Shown here in pieces: positions 2,149 through 62,552 of a DNA stretch of 64,000 nucleotides. Each line of letters begins with the position of its first letter. Positions within the stretch are counted from its first letter, which is position 1. Where the stretch lies: NCBI GenBank assembly GCA_036785375.1, contig JAWMAR010000136.1:372001-436000 (forward strand), given 5' to 3'. Position numbers and translations under genes: made by a program. The DNA comes from Leucoraja ocellata (Eukaryota). The notes under the pieces are model-generated. The model did not search any database. It had not been told where the DNA came from and worked only from the letters and a program-made list of their open reading frames with translations.

Positions 2149-2288
2149 CAATATTCCAGTGTTTTGGTCCTCATCTGCCACAGGAAAAGTGGTGTCACAG
2201 ACCATGAAGAACAGGGTGGTTGCCAGAGTGGAAACTGCATGATCAAACTCCTCAGTGAAGACAGGGTGATCATCGTGTATTTGGATCC
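2149..2288 (-). CDS. exon 45 (cytoplasmic)
   Basis: [59 protein letters not shown]; donor uncertain (read-through stops a few codons later). Confidence 0.75.

Positions 2289-62552: not shown

Follow-up and report, generated by a model that had tools for sequence, protein, structure and literature searches.

The window, a 64,000-nt stretch of the 3.44-Gb Leucoraja ocellata genome (contig C136:372001-436000), carries 45 exons of a real, intact gene for a single-pass membrane protein (Table 1) which, judged from alignment, phylogeny and gene order, is the batoid orthologue of zebrafish si:ch211-286b4.4. An initial annotation of this DNA had named no folds, whereas modelling of orthologues gives recognisable predicted folds for both non-repeat domains, a cupredoxin-like one next to the membrane and a zincin-like one lacking the catalytic glutamate in the cytoplasmic tail. 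We tentatively propose, at slightly less than an even chance, that this giant single-pass rod coats cilia, sperm flagella, hair bundles or comparable projections of the cell surface, or serves there as a spacer or tether.

An independent gene model, built from homologue alignments and splice signals with subsequent hand curation of over-extended dynamic-programming exons, gives exactly the 45 minus-strand exons and the approximately 2,400 stop-free codons initially proposed (7,202 nt, 2,400 codons, no stops). All 45 acceptors are AG and 44 donors are GT, the remaining donor being GC in an intron found in both assembly copies; the acceptor of exon 10 is ambiguous, with alternatives at 50711 and 50699 that lie 4 codons apart. 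Exons 1-29 encode 1,579 aa (aa 1-1579 of the window model), close to the predicted 1580 aa of cysteine repeats, with a Cys content of 11%, 21 sequons and 44 units of the type CxxG-aromatic-C, 20 of which conform to the strict CPxG[HFY][YF]C. As a control for chance, CxxG[HFY][YF]C was counted 27 times on the minus strand; the plus strand has none, and shuffled sequences (n = 20) have 0-1. The sole hydropathy peak above 1.6 corresponds exactly, at aa 1931-1955, to the transmembrane (TM) string quoted in the initial annotation and is followed by 445 cytoplasmic residues within the window, where more than 400 had been stated. The model supports the proposed type I rod topology. Fragmented LINE-type reverse-transcriptase-like frames, which we take to be CR1-like, are also found on the minus strand of the window.

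Table 1. Features of the Leucoraja ocellata locus; positions refer to the window unless the extended scale or another sequence is named.
Feature	Position	Strand	Remark
Full gene	extended scale, first exon 202671, stop -9208	-	
45 coding exons, numbers 67-111 of 116 candidates	2149..62552	-	si:ch211-286b4.4 orthologue
Exons 1-9	62552-62432, 61518-61316, 61081-60848, 60370-60119, 58258-58124, 57196-57050, 56017-55907, 55283-55098, 52693-52478	-	
Exons 10-18	50711-50533, 49147-49045, 48884-48720, 48253-48091, 47416-47313, 46307-46128, 45909-45802, 45392-45257, 44318-44185	-	
Exons 19-27	41685-41476, 41109-40958, 39733-39565, 37473-37365, 36019-35871, 34238-34113, 33508-33329, 32546-32322, 31567-31441	-	
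Exons 28-36	29218-29019, 27507-27295, 26858-26713, 25620-25493, 21991-21844, 21409-21271, 16939-16766, 16111-15985, 14372-14164	-	
Exons 37-45	12255-12093, 11078-11002, 9754-9594, 8402-8285, 7074-6902, 5704-5614, 3612-3478, 2924-2589, 2288-2149	-	
Exons 1-29, membrane-proximal third of the 4,970-aa GCC2/GCC3 (Ephrin_rec_like) array	27295..62552	-	
GC-AG intron after exon 5	58124-58123		
Intron (366 nt), site of the absent repeat block	41110..41475	-	
Exons 30-33, Cys linker outside the repeats plus a small beta domain	21271..26858	-	kept in invertebrate and protist-like homologues
Exons 33-36, juxtamembrane domain, predicted cupredoxin-like fold	14164..21409	-	sawfish orthologue model
Single TM helix split across exons 36-37	12196..14178	-	ends approximate
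Exons 37-39, conserved cytoplasmic stretch next to the membrane, with a likely coiled coil at its end	9594..12195	-	
Exons 44-45, predicted Wss1/SprT-like zincin fold	2149..2924	-	zebra shark orthologue model
Island exons	extended scale 108219-108070 (L005) and 98487-98308 (L004)		
Small PF15874 (Il2rg-domain) gene	L017:4409-4576 and 5576-5695	-	
ATP12A-like P-type ATPase gene	extended scale -49350 to -19103 (L020-L017)	+	
Fragmented LINE-type frames	22822-24742	-	

As the initial annotation had expected for the repeat array, the gene exceeds the window, and it does so at both ends, with 66 exon candidates in the upstream and five in the downstream flanking DNA. The full model comprises 115 exons over 212 kb and encodes 5,993 aa (636 kDa), of which 4,970 aa with 545 Cys are repeats; the ectodomain bears 61 sequons, the TM helix is at position 5322 and the tail has 647 aa. 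The first exon, of 40 nt and located 826 nt before exon 2, provides an ATG, a hydrophobic leader and a strong donor, and bird orthologues likewise begin with hydrophobic leaders. Judged by eye and from hydropathy, an N-terminal signal peptide is likely. The 116 candidates chain in phase with one exception, as exons 161495-161270 and 159353-159200 (extended scale) are both of phase 0-1, so that only one of them fits and the second was left out. These adjacent exons are either mutually exclusive, or one of them has decayed with loss of Cys; in exon 161495-161270, Cys codons are not the same in both assembly copies.

The second assembly copy, whose 5' part lies on contig C69 and whose 3' part lies on C430, is mostly 97-98% identical and contains all 116 exons in an open frame, with 96 synonymous and 84 non-synonymous codon differences (pN/pS 0.26). 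It is read as the other haplotype, with a recent duplication as the alternative. The section at 90.2-94.6 kb of the extended scale is assembled three times, C69 being 99.5% identical to C136 there; double and triple assembly could result either from unpurged haplotypes of unusually high divergence or from duplication. A second paralogue was not detected in genome searches, which give lower bounds.

In four RNA runs (tissue and species not stated) compared with positions 2000-17300, SINE reads dominate and exon-containing bins are at about zero; SINE copies are numerous in the window and heavily represented among the RNA reads. For positions 28900-38000, no run with RNA matches was listed. On a repeat-free stretch of 2,700 bases containing the last two exons, seven reads from three of the four runs were found. 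They fall into bins 1891-2250, at and near the penultimate exon (1968-2105 on the scale of this stretch), and none lies on the last exon. Three reads with at least 99% identity match only partly and then continue into unlike sequence, and read depth stops in the bin containing the acceptor, the pattern expected of spliced reads. The RNA mapping that had been proposed as a check returned reads confined to the penultimate exon, whereas no splice-junction reads are listed for the four runs, and the data lend weak support to low-level transcription of the gene. A pseudogene in decay, or open frames strung together by chance, would be in accordance with this thin RNA evidence, with the out-of-phase upstream exon candidate that lost Cys and with the block deletion described below. 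However, such an origin is hardly credible in view of 5,993 open codons in both copies, the low pN/pS, the collinear orthologues and the restriction of reads to one exon.

The closest named match of the ray protein is sawfish si:ch211-286b4.4 (74% identity over 1,533 aligned columns), and the zebrafish protein aligns with the full ray sequence at 48% identity over 4,927 columns. Searching with the non-repeat region retrieved, among 1,424 candidates, 54 proteins of 3,076-5,000 aa with collinear homology (50 from vertebrates, one from a crinoid, one from a sea slug and two others), and zebrafish si:ch211-286b4.4 falls within a cluster of these. A tree of 31 selected rows follows the species phylogeny, grouping the window protein with Pristis and Narcine (99/96) and placing sheep within the amniotes. 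Moreover, the downstream neighbours, a PF15874 gene and an ATP12A-like ATPase gene, are those fused into the alligator and sheep models. The former is located directly downstream in the same orientation and is adjacent in alligator, too; the latter is convergent in the ray, and adjacent and co-oriented in sheep. As tree and neighbours agree, a single-copy batoid orthologue can be deduced, and the suspected kinship to the zebrafish gene is borne out by alignment, tree and gene neighbourhood alike. Mouse Gm9195 is presumably the same gene, the sheep orthologue being the one retrieved.

Domain content was established on orthologues, by Pfam scans and from precomputed domains of the 54 homologues. 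PF07699 exceeds its cut-off (23.1 bits) in the paddlefish (58.5) and crinoid (28.6) proteins and stays below it in sawfish (19.3) and Narcine (16.4), in line with the assignment of the repeat to the Ephrin_rec_like/GCC2-GCC3 type. Besides domains of fused neighbours, PF07699 is the only Pfam domain found in the orthologues, and the database names zonadhesin, SCO-spondin and MEGF6 are therefore unsupported. Zonadhesin is characterized by MAM and VWD domains, neither of which is present in the scanned orthologues or the 54 homologues. SCO-spondin is a secreted protein with VWD, LDLa and TSP1 domains, all absent from the orthologues, and a TM helix is present here; likewise, the ligand-binding domain, FN3 repeats and tyrosine kinase typical of Eph receptors are missing from the orthologues. 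A function in gamete adhesion, as implied by the name 'zonadhesin-like', would be compatible with type I topology and with the testis enrichment in zebrafish addressed below, but we consider it very unlikely: besides the lack of MAM and VWD, the protein is single-copy and about 50% identical across jawed vertebrates, unlike gamete-recognition proteins, which evolve fast, and the gene name is absent from two zebrafish testis single-cell supplement sets as far as these are searchable.

Identity to the counterparts in zebrafish, paddlefish, frog, chicken and lizard is about 45-60% for the majority of repeat exons, compared with 62-82% by exon for two exons upstream of the window (aa 2211-2320). 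The resulting 110-aa island, which has an inserted loop with an extra Cys-x-Cys, reaches 71-85% identity in 38 of 60 proteins listed, all 38 from bony fishes or tetrapods, the others being partial models, carriers of half the island or invertebrate proteins (46-48%). Sheep models possess only its first half. Homodimer formation of the island, predicted without an alignment, scored 0.03. In the intron between exons 19 and 20, the ray lacks a block amounting to at least about 440 aa compared to paddlefish and frog, about 330 aa compared to zebrafish and about 1,330 aa compared to bamboo shark. The loss keeps the frame, and at least 158 aa of the block are retained in sawfish (72% identity to shark), while paddlefish, zebrafish and frog keep it too. 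Misassembly as the cause is disfavoured because both assembly copies share the identical junction and because the shark block matches the genome at 31 places, every one of them in the gene's own repeats and at no more than 48% identity. The C430 copy has an additional 1-kb non-coding insert in this intron, resembling window positions ~530-1580. At the N-terminus, the tetrapod models examined are about 800 repeat residues shorter than the ray protein. A rod tolerant of length changes but bearing one invariant patch suggests, on these sequence comparisons, a spacer with a single binding site.

For the base of the ectodomain, modelling the sawfish orthologue from an alignment of 20 sequences (pLDDT 76.8) predicts a beta-sandwich next to the membrane, with pseudoazurin as best structural match (Z 8.7, rmsd 2.8, 97 aligned residues), followed by plastocyanins; agreement by Foldseek is weak (E 0.014). 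In cupredoxins, the type 1 copper ligands sit in a C-terminal loop. This Cys/His/Met loop is absent from all 20 aligned sequences, and the domain would accordingly be structural. At a middling Z score, the juxtamembrane domain may share the fold of the small cupredoxins pseudoazurin and plastocyanin but lacks their copper ligands.

On the cytoplasmic side, the segment encoded by exons 37-39 is 43-53% identical to invertebrate, fish and bird homologues and, from its sequence pattern, likely ends in a coiled coil. The C-terminal domain was modelled on the zebra shark orthologue from 23 sequences, with pLDDT 86-94 across most of residues 81-200. The predicted structure resembles Wss1 best (Z 9.6, rmsd 3.0, 108 aligned residues), with SPRTN, minigluzincins and YbeY-type proteins also among the matches. 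Of 48,161 chains compared, the 13 ranked highest all have a zincin fold, with family assignments that are in part our assumption, and minigluzincins occupy the first seven Foldseek rows. By language-model features (Atlas), small phage and bacterial proteins are nearest (0.92-0.93), with SprT-like clusters (0.78) as a lead. As in these enzymes, an HxxxH motif is predicted within a helix (residues 154-170), following a three-stranded sheet. In contrast to Wss1, SPRTN, minigluzincins and YbeY, to which identity is only 6-16%, the ray domain lacks the catalytic Glu and resides in the tail of a membrane protein. PHROGs and NCBIfam scans resulted in weak coiled-coil-type hits and nothing for the zincin-like domain, a PDB sequence search with the Narcine orthologue found no chain at E 0.01, and no literature describing either fold in the si:ch211-286b4.4 family was found.

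The zincin-like domain was found in 54 of 61 proteins, several of the other seven being truncated models. The catalytic Glu is missing from all 54 domains; 53 of them have a residue at this position, and it is always S, A, T, V, I or C. The His pair is complete in 13 of the 54, namely in sharks and rays, paddlefish, one frog, the crinoid, the sea slug and the JGI protein P0061. In vertebrates, the domain is among the least conserved parts of the protein (31-41% for exon 44). Between TM helix and zincin-like domain, the invertebrate and protist-like homologues P0054, P0057 and P0061 have about 1,200-1,300 residues rich in E, K, R and Q, compared to about 300 in vertebrates. The modelled domain is best taken as a pseudo-peptidase whose ability to bind zinc may persist in cartilaginous fishes. 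An active zinc metallopeptidase employing a substitute general base could draw on the predicted fold, the His pairs of sharks, rays, two invertebrates and the protist-like homologue as well as further downstream His/Asp residues; still, it is highly improbable with the Glu replaced throughout and only two bony-vertebrate sequences keeping both His.

Outside animals, where sampling of homologues is thin, P0061 shows the whole architecture with a tail of 1,560 aa. Among 74 metagenome candidates, the ectodomain base recurs in five (E 1e-8 to 1e-22 versus the ray model), and three of these five loci have in-frame TAG/TAA within the match. Locus L045 is open under translation table 6, as is a 694-aa repeat frame (L048). 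Both the in-frame TAG/TAA and the openness under table 6 point to a ciliate origin. In these ciliate-code contigs, the ectodomain base is likewise combined with a TM helix and a charged helical tail. Thus, the ancient origin claimed in the initial annotation is supported by ciliate-code homologues, whereas no apicomplexan or oomycete member was retrieved. A search for shorter relatives starting from the protist-like homologue gave one protein among 7,999 scored, and an Atlas search with the ectodomain base returned only unnamed animal clusters, all below 0.9.

If the protein is a surface tether or coat, its 4,970-residue repeat array would form a glycosylated rod stiffened by disulfides, with a maximum length of about 300 nm, a rough value obtained from half of 545 Cys multiplied by 1.1 nm. 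The metal-free cupredoxin-like domain would be the base of this rod and the mid-rod island would bind an extracellular partner, with rod length elsewhere being free to change, as the in-frame block gains and losses among vertebrates would fit. Coiled coil and dead zincin may bind intracellular partners and thereby serve to anchor the rod or set its position, not to cleave substrates. This reading is based on the architecture in combination with purifying selection, on the absence of Glu from all 54 zincin-like domains and on the same base, TM helix and tail in ciliate-code contigs, and it has precedents. MST1 of Chlamydomonas mastigonemes is a filament of the flagellar surface with tandem Eph-like Cys-rich domains, in which a disulfide ladder is spaced at about 1.1 nm; in contrast to the ray protein with its repeats of about 5,000 aa, TM helix and 650-aa tail, it polymerises and is described with a polyproline helix in addition to nine Ig and six Sushi domains (PMC10602792). 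PKHD1L1, reported as a giant single-pass coat protein of stereocilia and kinocilium, shares size, glycosylated-type character, single-pass topology and hair-cell projections with the proposed rod, but only as a functional analogue, since homology was not detected and its described IPT, G8 and PbH1 domains and 8-aa tail differ (PMC6707252). Compared to the latter, a conserved tail of 650 aa exceeds what a pure coat would need and argues against this reading.

Placement on cilia, flagella or hair bundles would rest on indirect expression and distribution data. Zebrafish si:ch211-286b4.4 is one of 14 genes reported as up in testis versus ovary, listed together with ift74 (10.1101/650218). In neonatal mice, Gm9195 is given with values of 30.3 in inner and 1.3 in outer hair cells (about 22-fold, FDR 6.3e-6) and with matching open chromatin in inner hair cells (PMC12528612), and both enrichments are in favour of the tether or coat. 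The gene also appears in an NKT-cell signature (10.1101/2022.11.16.516757), which counts against such a placement. Furthermore, the zebrafish gene name is absent from the searchable parts of five supplement sets on Foxj1 targets and on lateral-line, testis and ependymal ciliated cells, several files being unsearchable (one of two in the case of Foxj1). Inner and outer hair cells both bear a kinocilium at the neonatal stage, so that a generic kinocilium component fits poorly with the inner-over-outer bias. Altogether, a link to cilia would be plausible.

Inner hair cells and NKT cells are also both strongly secretory. Together with the existence of ciliate-code homologues, this would suit a contact-sensing Cys-repeat membrane protein triggering regulated exocytosis, in analogy to the alveolate CRMPs. 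These are known from Plasmodium, Toxoplasma and Tetrahymena as membrane proteins with a Cys-rich modular ectodomain, the ciliate and apicomplexan representatives being needed for exocytosis (PMC9670195). We regard this function as decidedly unlikely, since CRMPs are described with multiple C-terminal TM domains and in some cases MAR or Kringle domains, and without report of a cupredoxin-like or zincin-like domain (PMC9670195), whereas the ray model has a single hydropathy peak and an unrelated tail. Likewise unlikely, though less so, is a signalling receptor or mechanical sensor, in which the island would bind a ligand or bear load and coiled coil and pseudo-zincin would relay the signal inward. 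The outstanding conservation of the island relative to most other repeat exons and the conserved juxtamembrane tail and dead-enzyme fold would be expected for it, but orthologue scans gave neither a kinase nor another known signalling domain, and the putative relay is the poorly conserved zincin-like domain, which was not found in seven of the 61 proteins.

Known so far were automated gene models, and the literature has only list mentions of the gene names, in agreement with the initial statement that no function is known; searches on GCC2/GCC3 and cilia, repeat-domain names and pseudoprotease terms gave, judged by title, nothing on this family. New in the present analysis are the way the domains are combined, the tail with its dead zincin and the island conserved within the rod. 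A protein of about 6,000 residues, encoded by a single gene across jawed vertebrates and with invertebrate and ciliate-code relatives, has been hidden under wrong names. Its 110-aa island, the Glu-less zincin fold of the tail and the cupredoxin-like base now provide handles for experiments. If the hair-cell enrichment of Gm9195 is that of this gene, it would fit the published search profile for hair-bundle link and coat proteins still to be assigned, which are sought as large, single-pass and hair-cell enriched (PMC6707252). A more far-reaching and rather unlikely proposal is that the family represents a class of giant type I tethers so far undescribed and spread throughout the eukaryotes, with a disulfide rod of about 300 nm, one ultraconserved island, a metal-free cupredoxin base and a dead zincin scaffold, which would have come from ciliated unicellular ancestors and would supply the hair bundles, cilia and sperm flagella of vertebrates with a link or coat still to be assigned. 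If true, the gene would be a candidate deafness or fertility gene.
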